The notes under the pieces were generated by a model that saw only the letters and a list, made by a program, of their open reading frames with translations, was not told where the DNA came from and did not search any database. A stretch of DNA of 57,197 nucleotides from Alphaproteobacteria bacterium (lineage in GTDB: Bacteria > Pseudomonadota > Alphaproteobacteria > UBA7887): assembly GCA_047517485.1 (NCBI GenBank), contig JAKZSU010000050.1, positions 1-57,197 on the forward strand, written 5' to 3'. The position numbers and the translations under genes are program-made. Within the stretch, counting starts at the first letter, position 1; each line of letters starts with the position of its first letter. This document shows positions 10,352-24,953 of the stretch, piece by piece.

Positions 10352-11335
<984 letters not shown>

Positions 11336-11363
11336 GGCGTCGCGATTTTCGAAGGGGTCCCCC

Positions 11364-11750
11364 TCACTCGTCATCATAGCGTGCGATTTCCACCAGGTTT
11401 TCGTCGGGGTCGCGGAAATAGACCGAGGTCATCGCGCCGCGGGCGCCGGTCTGCGGCATGGGGCCGAGTTCGATTTCGACGAGGAACTCGCCCAGGGTCG
11501 CCAGCACGTCGTCGATTGGCGTGTCGGTGACGAAGCAGACATCCGCCGTCCCCGGGCCCGCGGCGCGCGCGTTGGGGGTGATTTCGTTGCCGGCTTGGTG
11601 CAGATTGATCTTCTGATTGCCGAAGGTGAGCGCGCGACGATCGTCGCCGAAGGTCGCGATCTCCATGCCGAGAATGCGGCGATAGAAGTCGCACGTCCGC
11701 TCCATATCGCGGACGGTGAAGACGATATGGTCGAGCCCGGTGATGTTCAT
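11364..11750 (-). CDS. VOC/glyoxalase family protein
   Basis: GLDHIVFTVRD, QKINLHQ, GTADVCF and SVYFRDPDENLVEI motifs. Confidence 0.88.
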   Translation of the reverse strand: MNITGLDHIVFTVRDMERTCDFYRRILGMEIATFGDDRRALTFGNQKINLHQAGNEITPNARAAGPGTADVCFVTDTPIDDVLATLGEFLVEIELGPMPQTGARGAMTSVYFRDPDENLVEIARYDDE

Positions 11751-16643: not shown

Positions 16644-16731
16644 GTTAGCGGCGTTTTACCACAGGACGCGGCGATTCCGTCAATTTCCGATGCCGGAAAT
16701 CACCCGCATTAAGCGCGTTTCCGCGGCTAAT

Positions 16732-16760
16732 TTTGCGAAACGCCATGCCAATCCCTATAT
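16732..16760 (+). promoter_or_regulatory. RpoH (sigma32)-type promoter upstream of the AAA operon
   Basis: TTTGCG-N16-CCTATAT, matching the alphaproteobacterial RpoH pattern CTTG(AA/CC)-N15/16-CCTAT(A/C)T. Confidence 0.6.
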
Positions 16761-16828: not shown

Positions 16829-17914
16829 ATGAGTTCCATCGAGACATTCGAGCGGGAGATCGAGACCACCCAGCGCATGGTCGACGATATGCGCACCAAG
16901 ATCGACAGCGGCCGCCAGCTGATCGACACCATCGCCGAGAGCGAGAGCCTGACCGGCATGGATTTCGACATCGAGAACGCGCGCATCGAGGACGTTCTCG
17001 AACAGCAGCGCCTGATGGAATCCAACATCGCCGACCTGATCATCGGTCTGGAAGATGTCACCAACGCCTTCGGCGCCGAGTTCGACAGCATGCAGACCTA
17101 TAGTTTCTCGGAGAAACTGGTCGGCATATTTTCCAAGAAGAAGGCCCAATCGATGCGCAGCGACCGGGTGCGCACGACCTCGCTGGCGGGCAATTTGCAG
17201 GACTTGCTGGGCAAATCGAACACCATTGTCGGCATTCTCACCGACCAGCGCTCGGTGCTCGAATCGCGTTACGGCGCGTCCGAGGCGAGCTTGAAGAAAG
17301 TCATCGAGCGCCGGCAATCGATAACCGAGGAGATTCGCGCCACCCAAACACGTATCGAGGCGCTCAATCCGCGCCTGCTCGATGTCGAGAACCGTATCGC
17401 CGCCTCGACCGACCAGGCCGAGCGCGCGGCCCTCGAATCCGAGCGCTCCGAACTCGCGACCGAGTATAATCAGGCACAGGCCAAGGAGCAGGAACTGCTC
17501 GCCGCGTCGCAAACGCTGGAACGCTATACCTCGATGTTCCAGACTTTCGTCGACAGTCTGAACAACCAGATCGCGGCGCAGGAAACCCTGATCAACAAAC
17601 TCTCGATCGATACCGAGCAGCGCATCGTTTTGTACAAGGCGCTGGAGGATTCGCTGAAGACGTCGGCGCAACAGGATGTCGCGCACCAGATCAACACTAT
17701 CGGCAGCCGCGTCGATACCGCGGCGGAAGAGACCATGGCCGGGATCGGCGCGTCGGCGCAATCGCACATCGCCGATCTCTTGGAACTGCACGAACAGAGC
17801 ATGGTCGATACCAAGGAGATCCAGCGTCGCAAACGATTGGCCGACGACGCGTTTGCCCGACGCTTTGGCGAGGTGATGGAGAAGCACGAAGCTGCGCGCT
17901 ATCTCGCCAATTGA
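16829..17914 (+). CDS. Conserved coiled-coil protein, TelA/toxic-anion-resistance-like by eye
   Basis: All-helical heptad-rich sequence without TM; segment LINKL...RIVLYK...SLKTSAQQDVAH...VDTAAEE parallels the TelA core pattern (inference); GAGG RBS. Confidence 0.6.
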   Translation: MSSIETFEREIETTQRMVDDMRTKIDSGRQLIDTIAESESLTGMDFDIENARIEDVLEQQRLMESNIADLIIGLEDVTNAFGAEFDSMQTYSFSEKLVGIFSKKKAQSMRSDRVRTTSLAGNLQDLLGKSNTIVGILTDQRSVLESRYGASEASLKKVIERRQSITEEIRATQTRIEALNPRLLDVENRIAASTDQAERAALESERSELATEYNQAQAKEQELLAASQTLERYTSMFQTFVDSLNNQIAAQETLINKLSIDTEQRIVLYKALEDSLKTSAQQDVAHQINTIGSRVDTAAEETMAGIGASAQSHIADLLELHEQSMVDTKEIQRRKRLADDAFARRFGEVMEKHEAARYLAN

Positions 17915-17936
17915 TGCGCCGCGGGGAGTCGGGGGC

Positions 17937-19061
17937 ATGATCGACGCCTACATGCCGGCGATCCACGCGGCGTTTGCCGGCCTCGAAGGCGTCTATGCGC
18001 CGCAGGGGCCGTGGGCCAAACGCCACGACGTGATCCACAGCATTATCCGGCTTCATCTCGAACGCTTGCGCCACAGCTTCGCGGCGTGGGAAACACGCAT
18101 GCGGAGGGCCGCGGATTTCAAGATCGCCGCCACCGAATCGGGCTTTCCGATCTATCGCTTGGCGTTGCAGATCGCCGAGGACATGGCGCGCGCCGATGCG
18201 GTATTGGGAAATTTGCCGAGCCGCGAGACCATCGTCGAGGGCATGATCGACACCATGCTGGGGAAACAAAGTTTTCCCGCCGACGAGCAACGCGCGATGG
18301 CGGATCGGCTCTATTTCGAACTGTTGCGCCGGCGCCCGGCGTTTTCCGCGCATACCCCGCCGGTGACCATCCGCTATTCGCGCAACCCGCGTAGCAAGCG
18401 GCCGTATTACGTCGTGCATTGGTCGAGTTACGACGGCACCGCGCATCTGCCGATGATCTATATCGCGATTATCGAGGATTCGTCGGGCGACGTGAATCTG
18501 CCGCCGGCGCCGCCGCAACGAAAAATGGCCAAACGGTTCCGCCAGAGGCCGATCGACGGGCTGCCGAACGCGGAGTTGAGCAAGCCGTTCGCCGCATTCG
18601 CCGCCAGCCATGACGCCTATTCGCTGAACCTCACCTCGATCGCCACCGCGCTCGATCGCGACTTCGAATTTCTTCACCCCAAACAGATTCGCCGCGTCGT
18701 GCTGGGGCCGTTCTATCTCGGCGGGGTGACCAGCCATGGCCAGCGGGTGCAATCGATCCTCGATCACGCGCGCGACAAATCGCACGCCTGGCTGTTGACC
18801 TGGACGATGGAGGAGCTTCACTCGATGGAGGAGAAGCCGGCGCGCAGCGGCCTGTGGGGCGGCGCCCAGGCGGAAGAAATCTTCTACATCAACACCGACG
18901 ATGTCGACTGCGCGCGGCAAGGCGTGAGCGCGCAGGAGAAGCACGCGCTGGTGCCCCACGAGGCCTATCAGGCGGTGTTCGCCGAAGGCCGCGCGGAGGA
19001 CATATTCGCCGGCTACGACTGCCACATCCTGAGCGGCGATCAAGTCTTGCAACACGTATGA
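17937..19061 (+). CDS. Conserved hypothetical cytoplasmic protein
   Basis: 374-aa ORF with genome-like codon usage inside the operon; no motif recognised. Confidence 0.75.
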   Translation: MIDAYMPAIHAAFAGLEGVYAPQGPWAKRHDVIHSIIRLHLERLRHSFAAWETRMRRAADFKIAATESGFPIYRLALQIAEDMARADAVLGNLPSRETIVEGMIDTMLGKQSFPADEQRAMADRLYFELLRRRPAFSAHTPPVTIRYSRNPRSKRPYYVVHWSSYDGTAHLPMIYIAIIEDSSGDVNLPPAPPQRKMAKRFRQRPIDGLPNAELSKPFAAFAASHDAYSLNLTSIATALDRDFEFLHPKQIRRVVLGPFYLGGVTSHGQRVQSILDHARDKSHAWLLTWTMEELHSMEEKPARSGLWGGAQAEEIFYINTDDVDCARQGVSAQEKHALVPHEAYQAVFAEGRAEDIFAGYDCHILSGDQVLQHV

Positions 19062-19068
19062 GGACGCC

Positions 19069-20982
19069 ATGGACGTCGGTCTGACGACGCTGAACGAGAA
19101 GGATATCGCCAACTATCTCGCCACCGCGCAAGCGCTGGTGCAGCGCACCAATGTCACGGTGGCGGACGAGGACGCGCGGTCGAAATCGAAAATCGCCGGC
19201 ACTGGGCGTCGCTTCGTTTCCACCGTCTCGACCGGCGCGGTCCGGCGCACCATCGACGTCCGCGTCATCGACCGGATCAGCGCGGTCAGCGCCGACGATT
19301 CGATGCTGTCGCTGGCCCAGCACGGCCTCGCGTTCCGCTTGCGCCGCGGCATGGCGGTCGGTCTCGCGGTGCGCGACGTGTTCGCCCGGCGCACCGAACT
19401 CGAGGCACTGGCCGAGCGTAACAAGGCCTCGGCGCTCGCCGGCGACGACGCGGCGCTCTATCACGAACTGCAAGGCGCGACGGCGTTCGTCGCGCTGTTC
19501 GCGGCGGCGAGCTATCTGGTGCAGACGGTGGCGGGCGAGGCGGACGCGAACCAGGATCCCCCCGATCCGACGTTTGATTTCGACACTCCGCAGGATGCCT
19601 ACAAGAGCTTCCTCTATGGCCTCGACCAGACCCTAACCGACGTTGCCGACGACAGCCAGATGACGGCGCGGGCGCGGGCGTTCGCGCAAGCGGTGCTCGA
19701 GGGCCTGTTGTCGCGGCGCGCGCGCTTCCCCCGTCTCGCCGCGTTCGACGACGTCCATATCCGGCTCGACGCCGACGATTTCTCGCTGATCGGCTTCGAT
19801 ATCCAGCACCGGGTGCGCGCCAAGCCGCTGGTGATGACGTTCAAGAAACCGCACGAGGTGGTGGGCAATCACATCGCCAAATACCAGGCAATCAAGCTGT
19901 CGAAAATGCTCATGGCGTATGATTTCGACCGTGAAATGAACCCGTTCGTCGAACTCGGCGGCTTTCACTTCAGCTTCATCGGCGACGGCTTCCCCGGCAC
20001 CGGCAAGACCACCCTGATCCAGATGATCGCCGGCCTGATCAAGGACTATAGCGAGATCGCCGGCTACGCTTTCCATTACGAAAACTTTGGCGTCGATCAG
20101 GTGAACTCGTACCAGGGCAAATCGGGCCAGAACTGCAAGCAGTTCATCACCAATGTGACCGACCCTCGGGTCATCGGCTTCGGCACGGTCGACGATATCG
20201 ATCAAGTCGCCGCCAAACGCAGCGACGATCGTGCTTCGGCGGGGCAACACGAGATCACCGCGGTGCTGATGGAAAGCCTGTCCGGCACCAGCACGGTGGT
20301 GCGCGGCAATTGTTGCTTCGGCATGTTTTCCAATTATCCCGAGCACGTCGATGACGCGCTGCGCCAACGCGCCGGCGCGCGCTGGCTCGTCGACGGCCCG
20401 CAAACCCAAGCCGATTATGTCGATATCTTCGCCTTGCTCGCCGGCGACAATCATTCGATCCCGCTCGGAGATCACGACCTGTACGCGGCGCAGGAGATCA
20501 AGCGCGCGATCGAGGCCGCGTACGAGACCCACGACCGCCCCGAGGAAGACGAGCTCGCCAAGATCTACGACCGGGTGATCGGCGCCAACGGCGGTTTCGA
20601 GACCATGGCCGACATCGGCCGCTATCTCCACGCGATCAAGCAGGGCGAGTCGCGGTTTACCGGCCGCGCGATCAAGAACATCACCGACGCGATGAAAATG
20701 CGGGCGATGGATATCGAGCTGCCCGACGCGTGGTTCGAGACACCGGAGCCGTTTCTCCACAAGCCCTACGACGAGAAAGCGGCGATGATCGCCGAGCTGC
20801 GCGGCCCGATCACCCTGGACATGATGATCCAGGAGATCCACCGCTACGCCGATTCCGAATTCCGCTATACCAACAAATCCGACGACGCGGCGGTCGCCGA
20901 GATGATCCGCGATCAGCGCCTGCGCACGGCTGCGGCGAAAGAGATCCAGGCCTTGAAGGACGAAGGCCGATGGAACGACTGA
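19069..20982 (+). CDS. Classical-clade AAA+ ATPase with a long N-terminal domain
   Basis: Walker A GFPGTGKT, pore-loop-like NSYQGKSGQN, Walker B GTVDDIDQ, sensor/SRH FSNYPEHVDDALRQR, and helical lid FTGRAIKNI. Confidence 0.88.
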   Translation: MDVGLTTLNEKDIANYLATAQALVQRTNVTVADEDARSKSKIAGTGRRFVSTVSTGAVRRTIDVRVIDRISAVSADDSMLSLAQHGLAFRLRRGMAVGLAVRDVFARRTELEALAERNKASALAGDDAALYHELQGATAFVALFAAASYLVQTVAGEADANQDPPDPTFDFDTPQDAYKSFLYGLDQTLTDVADDSQMTARARAFAQAVLEGLLSRRARFPRLAAFDDVHIRLDADDFSLIGFDIQHRVRAKPLVMTFKKPHEVVGNHIAKYQAIKLSKMLMAYDFDREMNPFVELGGFHFSFIGDGFPGTGKTTLIQMIAGLIKDYSEIAGYAFHYENFGVDQVNSYQGKSGQNCKQFITNVTDPRVIGFGTVDDIDQVAAKRSDDRASAGQHEITAVLMESLSGTSTVVRGNCCFGMFSNYPEHVDDALRQRAGARWLVDGPQTQADYVDIFALLAGDNHSIPLGDHDLYAAQEIKRAIEAAYETHDRPEEDELAKIYDRVIGANGGFETMADIGRYLHAIKQGESRFTGRAIKNITDAMKMRAMDIELPDAWFETPEPFLHKPYDEKAAMIAELRGPITLDMMIQEIHRYADSEFRYTNKSDDAAVAEMIRDQRLRTAAAKEIQALKDEGRWND

Positions 20983-22304
20983 TCGAGGCCAAGCTGCTGC
21001 ATGGCGGCCTGATGCGCGTTCAAGAGCCGCATCTGATCGGCCGCTACAACGCCGCGCTCACCGCATTCGGCCTGCCGACGACCGAGCGCGCCTCGTTCTC
21101 GATCGACGCGACGGGCTATTCGCCGGAGATCGCCGCCGACCTCGAGGACGAGGATTATCTCGACACCCACGCGGTCAATCGGCGGTTCATCATTCTCAAC
21201 CCGGATCAGCAGAACCTGCCGATCGTGCATGTTCATTTTTCGTCGATCATCGATCATATGGCGGCATTCTTTCGTGACAATGCGAAGGCGCTGCACATGC
21301 TGACGCTCAAGGACGTGGTGTTCGGCGAAATCGAGGACGGCACCTACCGGGTCGATGGCATCGAAGACGTGCTGGCGATCCGCGAGGTCGAGTTTCGCGT
21401 GCGCACCGGCGACAATCTGATCACCTCGGCGCGCGAGCTCGAGGCACTGGTGACACGATTTCGCGCAGAGCACGACTCGTGGCAAAACGATGATCTGATC
21501 GCGGATATGCTCGGCCACGCACGCAAATGCGGCGATATTCGCCGCCTCGACATGGTGCCGCGGCAAACCCACTTCAGCCAGGGTTCGTTCTGGACCAAAC
21601 ACCTGGGCGGCATCTATGTCTTCCACGAAACGCACGATGACGACGATGACGATGACGATAATGACGGCGCCACCGTGCTCGGCTGGACCAAGCGGCCGAA
21701 ATTCGCCCGCGAGACCGATGCCATCGCGCGCTACATAGCGCTGAGTTCGGTGGGCTCGGTCTATCGCTTCCTGACCGCGGCGCATTGCGTCGAGACCGTC
21801 TCCGTCGATTGGCTGCGCGGCACCCGGCTGCTGGAAAAACGCATCGACTATCTGGTGCGCGCGGCGATCGCCCGATCGGACCCCGAAATCGACCTGGTGG
21901 CGATGCGACGGCCGGCGGTCAACACGTGGATTCACGCCAATCTCGACGCGTTGGCGGAGGACAGCCTGTTCCCCGCCCTGACCGAGCTCCGCCGCGCCGT
22001 GATGTCACAGAAAAAGATCGCCATCAGCCGGGTGCCCGGCGCGCTCAAATTTACCTTCCTGCGCGCCCATCCCGATCATCCCGACCGCGAGGTGATCAAC
22101 CGCCTGATCTCGGAATATGTGCCGTTCGATTTCGTCACCCGCTACGCGGTCAATCGCGAGGCGTTCTATCGCGACTACGAAACCTACCCCGAGAACCTGA
22201 AACAGTTCGTCATCCATACCTTGACGAGCGACGACCTCAAGGAGGCTCGCACCACGCGCGCCCAACTGTTCGGGGAGGCGCCGGTTTGGCACGGGTCGCA
22301 TTGA
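20970..22304 (+). CDS. DUF6638-like protein; start ATG 20970 (overlaps the ATPase stop)
   Basis: MERLIEAKLLHG...EPHLIGRYN...IDATGYSPEIA...NRRFIIL N-terminus recalled for DUF6638; internal poly-Asp loop. Confidence 0.7.
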   Translation: MERLIEAKLLHGGLMRVQEPHLIGRYNAALTAFGLPTTERASFSIDATGYSPEIAADLEDEDYLDTHAVNRRFIILNPDQQNLPIVHVHFSSIIDHMAAFFRDNAKALHMLTLKDVVFGEIEDGTYRVDGIEDVLAIREVEFRVRTGDNLITSARELEALVTRFRAEHDSWQNDDLIADMLGHARKCGDIRRLDMVPRQTHFSQGSFWTKHLGGIYVFHETHDDDDDDDDNDGATVLGWTKRPKFARETDAIARYIALSSVGSVYRFLTAAHCVETVSVDWLRGTRLLEKRIDYLVRAAIARSDPEIDLVAMRRPAVNTWIHANLDALAEDSLFPALTELRRAVMSQKKIAISRVPGALKFTFLRAHPDHPDREVINRLISEYVPFDFVTRYAVNREAFYRDYETYPENLKQFVIHTLTSDDLKEARTTRAQLFGEAPVWHGSH

Positions 22305-22325
22305 GGCACCGCAAACCCATCGGAG

Positions 22326-23471
22326 GTGGCGACCGTGCTTGATCCGATTTTCGAATGGCTGGGAAGACTGTTCGCCTCGCTGGGCGCCGCGGTGCGGGCG
22401 CTGGTGCGGGCGCTTACGGCGCCGTTTCGCAAAACCTGGGCCGCCTACCAACGGTCAAGCCGCGTCCTGCGTTACCTGATCGGCTTGATGATCCTGCCGT
22501 GGATCGTGTTCTACGCCTTGTTCATTTGGCATGCGGCGTGGATCCGTGGCTTCGACCTGGACTACGCCGATCGCCTGAGCGAGCGGCGCCCGAGCGTCGC
22601 CGCCGGCGAGCAAGTCGCGGTCGAAGGCGGGGCCAGCACGACCCGGACCTGCGCGCCCTCGGCGATCGTCGATGCCACCACCTATATCATCGATCTCAAC
22701 GTCAACCAGAACAAATGGATGTCGAGCCATCCGCTCTACAAGGCGGGGCTGTTTTGGTTGATCGAATGGGACGACACTTGGTTTCTCGATAATAAGGCGG
22801 CGTTTCAGCGCGGCGCGCATCAGGCCGCGTCACGCACCGCGGTTGAACTCGCGGACGTGCTCGGACGGGTGCGCGGCACCTCCGAGATCGATCCCGACCT
22901 GAAGATCGCCAAGGGCAACACCCAGTTCGATCAATACACTTGGTATTTTAACCCCTTCGATTCTCAGCCATTTGGCCCAACGACGCCGAGCCCGACCTAT
23001 TACCATAACGCGCTCGACTCTTTGCACGCCTACAACGCGCGACTGGCGGCGTGCGACGCGACGTTCGACGCCCGTACCGACAATCTGCTGCAGTTCCTCG
23101 ACCGTATCGCCAAGGACATCGGCTCGACCTCCGCCGCGATCAAGGACCGCGCCGAACAATACGACTCCGGCTGGTTCGATACCCGCGCCGACGATATCTT
23201 CATGCACGCGCGCGGCCAGCTCTACGCCTATTACGGTATCTTGCGCGCCGCCCGCGCCGATTTCGTCGATATCGTCGAAGAGAAAAAGTTGGACGATATC
23301 TGGGACCTGATGGACGCGCATCTGAAGAGCGCGATCGCGCTCGAGCCAGCCATCGTCTCGAACGGCGCCGAGGATGGCTGGCTGATGCCGACCCATCTCA
23401 CCAACATCGGATTCTACATTCTCCGCGCGCGCTCGAATCTGGTCGAGATCCGTTCGGTGATCGATCGTTAA
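22326..23471 (+). CDS. DUF2333-like membrane-anchored periplasmic protein (start probably GTG 22335)
   Basis: N-terminal amphipathic helix plus one TM; WFLDNKAAFQRG, FDARTDNL, GWFDTRADD, GQLYAYYG and PTHL...GFYILRAR motifs. Confidence 0.75.
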   Translation: MATVLDPIFEWLGRLFASLGAAVRALVRALTAPFRKTWAAYQRSSRVLRYLIGLMILPWIVFYALFIWHAAWIRGFDLDYADRLSERRPSVAAGEQVAVEGGASTTRTCAPSAIVDATTYIIDLNVNQNKWMSSHPLYKAGLFWLIEWDDTWFLDNKAAFQRGAHQAASRTAVELADVLGRVRGTSEIDPDLKIAKGNTQFDQYTWYFNPFDSQPFGPTTPSPTYYHNALDSLHAYNARLAACDATFDARTDNLLQFLDRIAKDIGSTSAAIKDRAEQYDSGWFDTRADDIFMHARGQLYAYYGILRAARADFVDIVEEKKLDDIWDLMDAHLKSAIALEPAIVSNGAEDGWLMPTHLTNIGFYILRARSNLVEIRSVIDR

Positions 23472-23474
23472 ACC

Positions 23475-24953
23475 ATGCCAATGATTTTGGCGATCGACCA
23501 GGGGACGACGAGCAGCCGGGCGATCGTCTTCGACGCCGACGGAGCGATCGTCGCCGCGCGCCAAGCCGAGTTCCCGCAACATTTTCCCGACACCGGATGG
23601 GTCGAGCATGATCCGGAGGATCTCTGGCGCACCACGCTTGAAGTCGCGCAACAGGCGCTCGCCGAAGCGGAAAAGACGGACGAACGGGTCGCCGCGATCG
23701 GCATCGCCAATCAACGCGAGACCACGCTGGTCTGGGACCGCGCGACCGGCGCGCCAATCCACAACGCGATCGTCTGGCAGGACCGGCGCACCGCCGACGT
23801 TTGCAAACGCTTGTCGGACGCGGGCGCGGAAGCGGAGGTGCGCGCGTCTACCGGGCTGCTGCTCGATCCCTATTTCTCGGCCACCAAAATCGCCTGGATT
23901 CTCGACCATGTCGACGGCGCGCGGGCACGCGCGAGCCGTGGTGAGCTGGCATTTGGTACCGTCGACTCTTTTCTGCTCTGGCGCCTCACCGGCGGCCAAT
24001 CGCATCTCACCGACGCGACCAACGCGAGCCGCACCAGCTTGTTCAATATCCACCACCAGGCCTGGGACGACGAACTGTTGCGGCTGTTCGAGGTGCCCGC
24101 CACCTGCCTCCCCGAGGTCCGCGACTGTGCTTCGAACTTTGGCGAGACCGACCCAGAACTGTTCGGCCGCGCGATCCCAATCCTTGGCATCGCCGGCGAT
24201 CAGCAAGCGGCGGCGATCGGCCAATCGTGCTTGGCGCCCGGCGCGATCAAAAGCACCTACGGCACCGGCTGTTTCGTCCTGGTCAATACCGGTGATCAGG
24301 CGGTGGTCTCAAGCAACCGGCTGTTGACCACGGTGGCTTATCGCCTCGACAGTAAAACCACCTACGCCATGGAAGGCTCGATTTTTACCGCCGGCGCGGC
24401 GGTACAATGGCTGCGCGATCAACTCGGCATCGTCGACAGCGCGGCGGAAACAGAAATCCTCGCGCGCTCGATCGCCGACACCGGCGGGGTCTATTTGGTC
24501 CCCGCGTTCACCGGGCTCGGCGCGCCGCATTGGGACTCGAGCGCCCGCGGCACCCTGGTCGGCCTGACCCGCGCCACCGGACGCGCCGAGCTCGCCCGCG
24601 CCGCGCTCGAAGCGGTGTGTTATCAGACCGCAGATCTGCTGCGCGCGATGGCCGACGACGGCGTCACCCCGACCGCGCTCAGGGTCGACGGCGGCATGGT
24701 GGCGAACGATTGGCTGCTGCAATATCTCGCCGACATTCTCGATCTGCCGGTCGATCGGCCGGCGATCATGGAAACCACCGCGCTCGGCGCCGCGACCCTG
24801 GCCGGATTGGGCGCCGGCCTCTACGACTCGGTCGACGACGTCGCGCGCCGCTGGCAGCGCGAGGTGCGCTTCGAACCGGCAATGGACGCCGCGACACGAG
24901 AAGTGCGGCTGGCGGGCTGGCAAGACGCGCTGCAACGGACGTTGAGCGGATAG
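23475..24953 (+). CDS. glpK: Glycerol kinase
   Basis: [51 protein letters not shown] and RVDGG motifs. Confidence 0.95.

Follow-up and report, generated by a model that had tools for sequence, protein, structure and literature searches.

A conserved five-gene operon joins a classical AAA ATPase to three uncharacterised partners and an exchangeable membrane protein

What common task could hold together five adjacent genes, one encoding a classical AAA ATPase and another a protein anchored in the membrane, when public annotations call their products hypothetical, 'ATP-binding protein', DUF6638 or DUF2333? The question is raised by positions 16829 to 23471 of a 57,197-nucleotide (nt) stretch of DNA (contig JAKZSU010000050.1, assembly GCA_047517485.1) from an alphaproteobacterium of the GTDB lineage UBA7887; the whole stretch is referred to here as the window. 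The initial annotation of this DNA knew of no functional description, and in keeping with that we found no paper describing the set in the literature when searching by Pfam family names or by the locus tags of the copy in Sinorhizobium meliloti. Comparison with related loci indicates that the five genes, g1 to g5, are a real operon, that its first four genes form a core which is either old or widely transferred, and that a membrane partner beside this core is usual but not homologous between lineages. We read the set, tentatively and with somewhat less than even confidence, as a membrane-tethered protein-remodelling machine.

The five open reading frames (ORFs) are co-oriented on the forward strand and separated by gaps of 22, 7, -13 and 21 nt; an ORF check reproduced the annotated arrangement exactly. 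Related loci were compared in a scan that took one genome per species, with gene order and identities read from the 80 best loci. Relatives of g4, a DUF6638 protein, are encoded in at least 559 species, and wherever a related locus is long enough to contain the full set, as some 70 are, the five genes stand in one unchanged order. Of 12 resolved Hyphomicrobiales-type loci, g3 and g4 abut in six (L002, L003, L006, L011, L014 and L027), and in these the 13-nt overlap between them recurs, as it does in L019. Pairwise distances are correlated throughout the first four genes (r 0.90–0.98, with 0.978 for g2 and g4), and between g5 and these four the correlation is looser (r 0.60–0.69). Chance clustering of the genes is rejected by this combination of synteny and co-evolution; the arrangement is far beyond chance, and the initial proposal that the genes are a co-inherited unit is well founded.

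The same core is found at much greater distances. Three families (f94, which we take to be the Rhodobacteraceae, f51 and f221) and one non-alphaproteobacterial genome keep the order g1-g2-g3-g4, and in a plasmid collection four Vibrio megaplasmids of approximately 0.9 Mb carry g1, g2, AAA and DUF6638 genes in that order, with g3 at 37% identity, followed by mfd. Divergent members of the g2 family led to Ca. Buchananbacteria, Constantimarinum furrinae (Bacteroidota) and a metagenome-assembled genome of the Trueperaceae, where the contigs again display a g1-like gene, a g2-like gene, an AAA gene and a DUF6638 gene in succession, with dprA near the core on the Trueperaceae contig. In these other phyla the gene that opens the cluster is longer than g1 and homologous to it (hhalign probability 99%). 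The core ranges across Alphaproteobacteria, Vibrio megaplasmids, Bacteroidota, Patescibacteria and Deinococcota, that is, at least four bacterial phyla, and such a spread, as read from these alignments, is that of an old or widely transferred unit.

The one component of the core with characterised relatives is g3 (19069–20982, forward strand, 637 amino acids (aa)), which comprises an N-domain of about 250 aa, an AAA module at residues 255–550 approximately, and a C-terminal extension. Residues 307–437 match PF00004 AAA (E 2.6e-11, 44.5 bits, cut-off 21.2). The Walker A motif GFPGTGKT lies at residues 307–314, pore loop 1 contains Y348-Q-G350 within S-Y-Q-G-K-S, the sensor-1 residue is N422, and the second region of homology (SRH) includes ALRQR at 430–434, with arginines R432, R434 and R438. 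None of these features varies among 20 sequences, the Vibrio copy (37% identity) has them all, and the initial assignment of g3 to the classical clade, with an aromatic pore loop SYQG and an SRH arginine in ALRQR, agrees with all of them. The accompanying description of Walker A and Walker B as intact stands for the former and fails for the latter, as Walker B (FGTVDD, 371–376) departs from the canonical DE and presents D375-D376, with Asp where the catalytic Glu is expected. This DD is found in every copy examined and does not vary from rhizobia to Vibrio, that is, in 20 aligned copies and in the Vibrio copy (37% identity). Judged by these motifs, g3 is a divergent classical AAA protein at the level of its ATPase module. 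Among solved structures the closest to it are Afg2, Rpt2 and fidgetin-like 1, with E values of only about 1e-3. No family matched the N-domain or the C-terminal extension; neither an MIT domain nor a Vps4 C-terminal domain was detected, Pfam returning only PF00004 and weak P-loop families, and a sequence-profile search of the PDB with the g3 alignment gave nothing useful. Identity to the window copy is 60–74% in related loci. Within the N-domain, residues 137–155 (window 19477–19533) form a borderline hydrophobic, Ala-rich helix with a Kyte-Doolittle 19-residue mean of 1.65, similar in character in the S. meliloti, Rhodobacteraceae-type and Vibrio copies; it may lie buried within the protein or touch the membrane.

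The first gene, g1 (16829–17914, forward strand, 361 aa, 22 nt before g2), is by sequence identity the most conserved member of the set, at 67–82% to the window copy in Hyphomicrobiales-type loci and 39–46% in Rhodobacteraceae-type copies. Its product is acidic, free of Cys and Trp, soluble and without any hydrophobic or transmembrane (TM) segment, and its C-terminus retains the pattern ADDAFARRF...H...Y across the alignment. The AlphaFold model is all-helical, with long helices at 119–192, 196–275 and 281–360 (74–80 residues), at a predicted local distance difference test score (pLDDT) of 63 and a predicted template modelling score (pTM) of 0.50. These predictions suggest a soluble helical protein, where the initial annotation had a soluble long coiled coil. 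The affinities proposed for it are not supported. As a TelA-like protein (PF05816) it is rejected, there being no Pfam match at E <= 0.1, no response from the TelA hidden Markov model (HMM) anywhere in the genome, and an hhalign probability of 0.13% when the g1 alignment was compared with four TelA sequences from Alphaproteobacteria. Kinship with PspA or ESCRT-III likewise lacks support from Pfam, where neither Snf7 (PF03357) nor PspA_IM30 (PF04012) matches at E <= 0.1, and from Foldseek, where no ESCRT-III, PspA or Vipp1 chain occurs among the top 50 matches, a model of pLDDT 63 being a weak test of fold. What Foldseek returned were generic long-helix matches (chemoreceptors, SMC arms, Rad50 coiled coils, ClyA-type toxins, and syntaxin at E 0.06), none at E <= 1e-3. 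Searches of Pfam, NCBIfam, PHROGs and PADLOC placed g1 in no family, beyond weak generic coiled-coil hits in PADLOC, and a PDB sequence-profile search with its alignment gave nothing useful.

The two remaining core proteins are equally difficult to place. The product of g2 (17937–19061, forward strand, 374 aa, 7 nt before g3) has no match in Pfam, NCBIfam, PHROG or PADLOC, and is, from its sequence, a soluble orphan protein; its family comprises 619 clusters at 50% identity within 1.84 billion proteins, those listed reaching no more than about 415 aa, with conserved motifs SGFP, YVVHW..YDG, EDSS and LHPKQLRR..GP. Identity to the window copy in related loci is 38–58% for g2 and 38–48% for g4 (20970–22304, forward strand, 444 aa, 21 nt before g5). 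The latter matches DUF6638 (PF20343; E 3e-70, 237.7 bits, cut-off 27), and belongs to a divergent branch of that family, because Rhodobacteraceae-type copies score 650–840 bits. Its AlphaFold model is confident (pLDDT 91, pTM 0.86), alpha/beta in the N-terminal portion and helical towards the C-terminus, and has no real match by Foldseek, the best in PDB being at E 2.6 (TM score 0.10) and the best among the viral models of BFVD at E 1.7; MukF is among the insignificant ones. Residues 223–232 of g4 (window 21636–21665) read eight Asp followed by Asn-Asp, a run present in none of 69 other aligned family members, the same-genus copy included, and probably a loop insertion, since the AlphaFold confidence falls to 63 there. 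Profile-profile comparison revealed no homology among the subunits.

The membrane component is g5 (22326–23471, forward strand, 381 aa), which matches DUF2333 (PF10095; E 5e-20, 72.2 bits, cut-off 22) and has a short cytoplasmic N-terminal tail, a basic stretch, a single TM helix at about 47–70 and then a domain of some 310 aa that is probably periplasmic. Across 80 orthologues, conservation of C109 and C243 is at least 95%, and such a pair would fit a disulfide-bonded periplasmic domain. A TM-anchored periplasmic DUF2333 protein, as first annotated, is consistent with all of this; its proposed standing as an integral sensor is not supported, given its replacement elsewhere, its loose co-evolution with the core (38–69% identity to the window copy in related loci) and the existence of a stand-alone paralogue. 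In all nine Rhodobacteraceae-type loci, which come from f94, f51, f221 and the non-alphaproteobacterial genome, a DUF1523 protein with two TM helices follows g4 and DUF2333 is absent, and in Ca. Buchananbacteria and Constantimarinum furrinae (L108 and L109) the core is followed by a protein with three TM helices and a membrane protein of about 560 aa. Profile comparison found no homology between DUF2333 and DUF1523. The stand-alone paralogue is encoded elsewhere in the same genome (contig C48, 7590–8612, reverse strand; 340 aa, 38% identity to g5, a single TM helix), adjoining trpS and a TauE-like membrane protein, with neither an AAA nor a DUF6638 gene nearby, which suggests that DUF2333 is an independent family recruited by this variant of the operon. 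The comparison of these sequences leaves the membrane partner as a usual companion of the core that differs in origin from lineage to lineage.

When might the operon be expressed? A promoter-like sequence, TTTGCG-N16-CCTATAT, lies at 16731..16759 on the forward strand, some 70 nt before the g1 start, and is of sigma-32 (heat-shock) or sigma-70 type. It resembles the clpB, dnaK, rpoH and htpG promoters of the same genome, where comparable motifs are TTTGCG-N15-CACATAT (clpB), GTTGCA-N16-CCCATAT (dnaK), CTTGAA-N16-CACACAT (htpG) and CTTGAA-N16-CCAATAC (hslV). A relaxed form of the pattern has 54 hits in 7.4 Mb on both strands, and the downstream ORFs, named by eye, include g1, dnaK, an rpoH-like gene, and genes for a CnoX-like thioredoxin, a YccA-like and an SPFH-like protein. 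Since so rare a pattern is shared with dnaK and rpoH, a heat-shock-type promoter upstream of g1 is plausible in this genome. It is not general, on the evidence of the other upstream regions: a -10 element C(C/A)TATAT precedes g1 in 55 of 71 loci, mostly with a -35 element CTTTCA or CTTTAA, the relaxed alignment gives a -35 consensus CTT(T/G)(C/A)A that does not separate sigma-32 from sigma-70, and a strict RpoH regular expression matched two of 64 loci. Five Rhodobacteraceae-type loci (L082–L085 and L088) contain an inverted repeat, ATGTAAA-N5-TTTACAT, about 40–70 nt before g1 and perfect in L088; it stands directly upstream of a -10-like element, CCCCATAT, and looks like the operator for a regulator.

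The S. meliloti 1021 copy offers transcription data. There g1, g2 and g3 correspond to SMc02735, SMc02734 and SMc02733, SMc02732 is a DUF559 insert, and the DUF6638 and DUF2333 genes lie downstream. According to Schlueter et al. 2013 (PMC3616915), an operon running from tdk (SMc02736) to SMc02732 is experimentally supported in this strain, and a transcription start site 57 nt before SMc02735 has its promoter in the RpoD table. Since the promoter mapped there belongs to the housekeeping class, stress control of the operon is not universal. A gel-shift screen with ChvI, of the envelope-stress regulator ExoS/ChvI, recovered a fragment of the S. meliloti 1021 chromosome (2587012–2587177) that lies inside SMc02733 (PMC3687685).

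From these observations a possible mode of action can be assembled. In a membrane-tethered remodelling machine, g3 would form a ring whose Tyr-Gln-Gly pore loop pulls on protein, and its target or track would most plausibly be an assembly of g1, which is the most probable candidate because no other partner is as well conserved and because its C-terminal tail is retained. The g2 and g4 proteins would serve as an adaptor or regulator pair; they probably act together, because they co-evolve almost in lockstep. The short cytoplasmic tail of g5 would hold the machine at the inner membrane or couple it to the periplasm, and the link to the membrane is argued more broadly because, in most lineages, what comes after the core is a membrane protein, of a different family each time. 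The sequence upstream of g1 suggests heat or proteotoxic stress as the probable cue for the operon in this organism. What the sequences show is the gene set, its conservation, the AAA motifs and the membrane topology; the ring, its substrate, the adaptor roles and the stress control are inferred. A more specific form of the same idea would have the core as an ancient ATP-driven machine at the cytoplasmic membrane, in which an AAA unfoldase cycles a polymer or bundle assembly of g1 to repair or reshape the membrane; we consider this version doubtful.

Several observations weigh against a tethered remodelling machine. The Walker B DD in every copy may mean that ATP turnover is slow or merely structural. 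The sequence of g1 does not significantly resemble ESCRT-III, PspA, TelA or a filament former of any kind, and its model is only moderately confident, with generic helical-bundle matches. The g2 and g4 proteins carry no recognisable domains, and to call them adaptors is a guess. On the Vibrio plasmids and the Trueperaceae contig there is no membrane gene beside the core. Finally, in the S. meliloti promoter map the SMc02735 promoter is classed as RpoD and, in the portion of the RpoH1 sheet covered, is absent (Schlueter et al. 2013, PMC3616915).

The same ATPase could instead act upon other clients, as a stress-induced extractor or unfoldase of damaged membrane or cytosolic proteins in the manner of Msp1/ATAD1, FtsH or Cdc48, with g1, g2 and g4 supplying a scaffold and substrate selectors and the membrane partner a docking site. 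The classical clade of g3, with Afg2, Rpt2 and fidgetin-like 1 as its nearest solved relatives, would suit such a function, as would the interchangeability of the membrane partners, the position of htpG 4.5 kb downstream, and a promoter plausibly of heat-shock type whose pattern is shared with dnaK, rpoH and the CnoX-like, YccA-like and SPFH-like genes. We nevertheless think it unlikely: a protease or ubiquitin-like partner is absent, the 67–82% identity of g1 is more what one would expect of a dedicated partner or substrate than of a selector with broad scope, and the S. meliloti promoter is of the housekeeping class.

A third possibility is a conflict system, anti-phage or abortive, in which the AAA protein senses or dismantles a phage structure and the membrane partner is the effector. 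The distribution of the operon has some of the patchiness of such systems: within the window's own order DUF6638 occurs in two of 23 genomes, both of its own genus, in a class-wide sample in five of 401 (three families), and in the large family f94 in 138 of 301, and it has spread horizontally to Vibrio megaplasmids and other phyla. Other genes also enter the operon. At L083 the AAA and DUF6638 genes are separated by a gene (10553–11575, reverse strand) whose 340-aa product has an AbiJ_NTD4 domain (PF18863, E 1.8e-9), and inserts of 0.8–1.05 kb occupy the same site in four more of the seven f94/f51 loci (L084, L085, L086 and L088), with none in L082, L087, L104 or L105. In rhizobia the inserts are small selfish genes: the gap between g3 and g4 contains a DUF559 endonuclease-like gene in 15 loci and a PIN toxin in six (L035, L039, L040 and L106 are examples of loci with intergenic insertions), the gap between g2 and g3 contains a Fic protein in five, and S. 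meliloti Ak57 has a copy of ISRm16 inside the operon. The operon tolerates insertions between its genes, because all of these sit in the gaps. The initial annotation had kept an anti-phage role in view and named PADLOC as a check on it; no defence-system model matched and positive evidence is nil, PADLOC-DB v2 yielding only weak generic matches (for the coiled coil, LmuB and JetC at E 0.002–0.04; for the AAA protein, TRIP13 at E 5e-4 and IetA at E 0.016). PHROGs gave weak AAA matches to g3 and nothing else, a phage genome collection contained no match to the window g3 or to the Vibrio g3 and g4, and a pattern scan of IMG/VR found no relative. The set has no domain recognisable as a nuclease, protease, NADase or pore former, and it is bordered by housekeeping genes and not by defence islands. 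Many genera of the Rhizobiaceae keep the operon at a stable chromosomal position: among 48 Rhizobiaceae-type loci, tdk lies upstream in 30 and fhs (formate-tetrahydrofolate ligase) downstream in 39. Sequence conservation is unusually high compared with defence genes, and the cluster is kept in a small-genome lineage of the Candidate Phyla Radiation (CPR). On this balance a role in conflict seems improbable.

A role at the DNA or nucleoid, with the membrane genes as mere neighbours, is very improbable: co-transcription with thymidine kinase in S. meliloti, mfd after the core on the Vibrio plasmids, dprA near the Trueperaceae core and the best structure matches of g1 (SMC and Rad50 coiled coils among them) and of g4 (MukF among them) speak for it, but all those matches are non-significant, Pfam detects no DNA-binding or nuclease domain, the tdk adjacency is limited to one family, and lineages with no close kinship repeatedly have membrane genes next to the core.

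The surroundings of the operon in the window are ordinary metabolism genes. On the 5' side lies a COQ7 gene on the opposite strand. On the 3' side an FGGY-family sugar kinase (23475–24953) begins 3 nt past the g5 stop, and is followed in order by genes for an HTTM/DCC1 protein, an esterase and htpG. The kinase may be co-transcribed with the operon in this genome, since no terminator-like site was found after g5; nor was any found between the five genes. It is a neighbour of the cassette in no other locus compared, and the flanking genes of the window are not conserved at the 80 best related loci. Elsewhere in the genome, both groES genes (contigs C72 and C239) are preceded by inverted repeats resembling CIRCE (controlling inverted repeat of chaperone expression), for example TTGGCACTC-N9-AAGTGCTAA, and have no heat-shock-type promoter, so that the chaperone genes of this organism seem, from their upstream sequences, to be split between HrcA and sigma-32-type control.

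Classical AAA ATPases drive proteolysis, membrane fission and the recycling of fusion complexes, and here one of them is accompanied by an unchanging trio of unrelated partners in at least four bacterial phyla. No characterised family accommodates g1, g2 or g4, and the last of these has a confident model without a relative among solved structures. As S. meliloti 1021 is harmless and genetically tractable, and transcription of the operon is known there, the function of the set can be tested directly.

How the set stands beside known systems depends on which of its parts are compared. By sequence, the nearest relatives of g3 are Cdc48/p97, Afg2/Drg1, Rpt/PAN and fidgetin, which have the pore loop and SRH layout in common with it; the resemblance is nevertheless weak (E values of about 1e-3), neither terminal domain of g3 has any match, and its operon partners are unrelated to the cofactors known for those enzymes. 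One of the nearest working analogies is Vps4 and ESCRT-III, including archaeal CdvB/CdvC and the bacterial relatives PspA/Vipp1: here as there, a classical AAA protein that bears an aromatic pore loop and an additional N-domain stands beside a conserved all-helical protein with a link to the membrane. Unlike ESCRT-III and PspA, g1 has neither a Snf7 nor a PspA_IM30 domain, and at 361 aa, with helices of 74–80 residues, it is longer; unlike Vps4, g3 has no detectable MIT domain and a DD in Walker B, and two further large orphans, g2 and g4, are obligatory here. NSF, alpha-SNAP and the SNAREs are comparable by analogy only, as a classical AAA protein and adaptors that take apart helical bundles held at the membrane. 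NSF-D2 also has Asp in place of the catalytic Glu, but g3 contains a single AAA module, the syntaxin match to g1 is non-significant (E 0.06), and SNAP-like or SNARE motifs were not found. The LiaI-LiaH and PspA-PspBC systems share with this one a soluble helical protein, a small membrane anchor and, in this genome, a promoter plausibly of stress type; homology to them was not detected, and those operons have no dedicated classical AAA unfoldase, PspF being an enhancer-binding AAA+ protein. The set may yet turn out to be a variation on a familiar theme, in which an AAA remodeller is coupled to a helical assembly. Were the more specific reading, a machine that cycles a polymer or bundle of g1 at the membrane, to be borne out, rhizobia, flavobacteria, Deinococcota and CPR bacteria would share a functional counterpart of ESCRT-III/Vps4 or NSF/SNARE made from unrelated parts.

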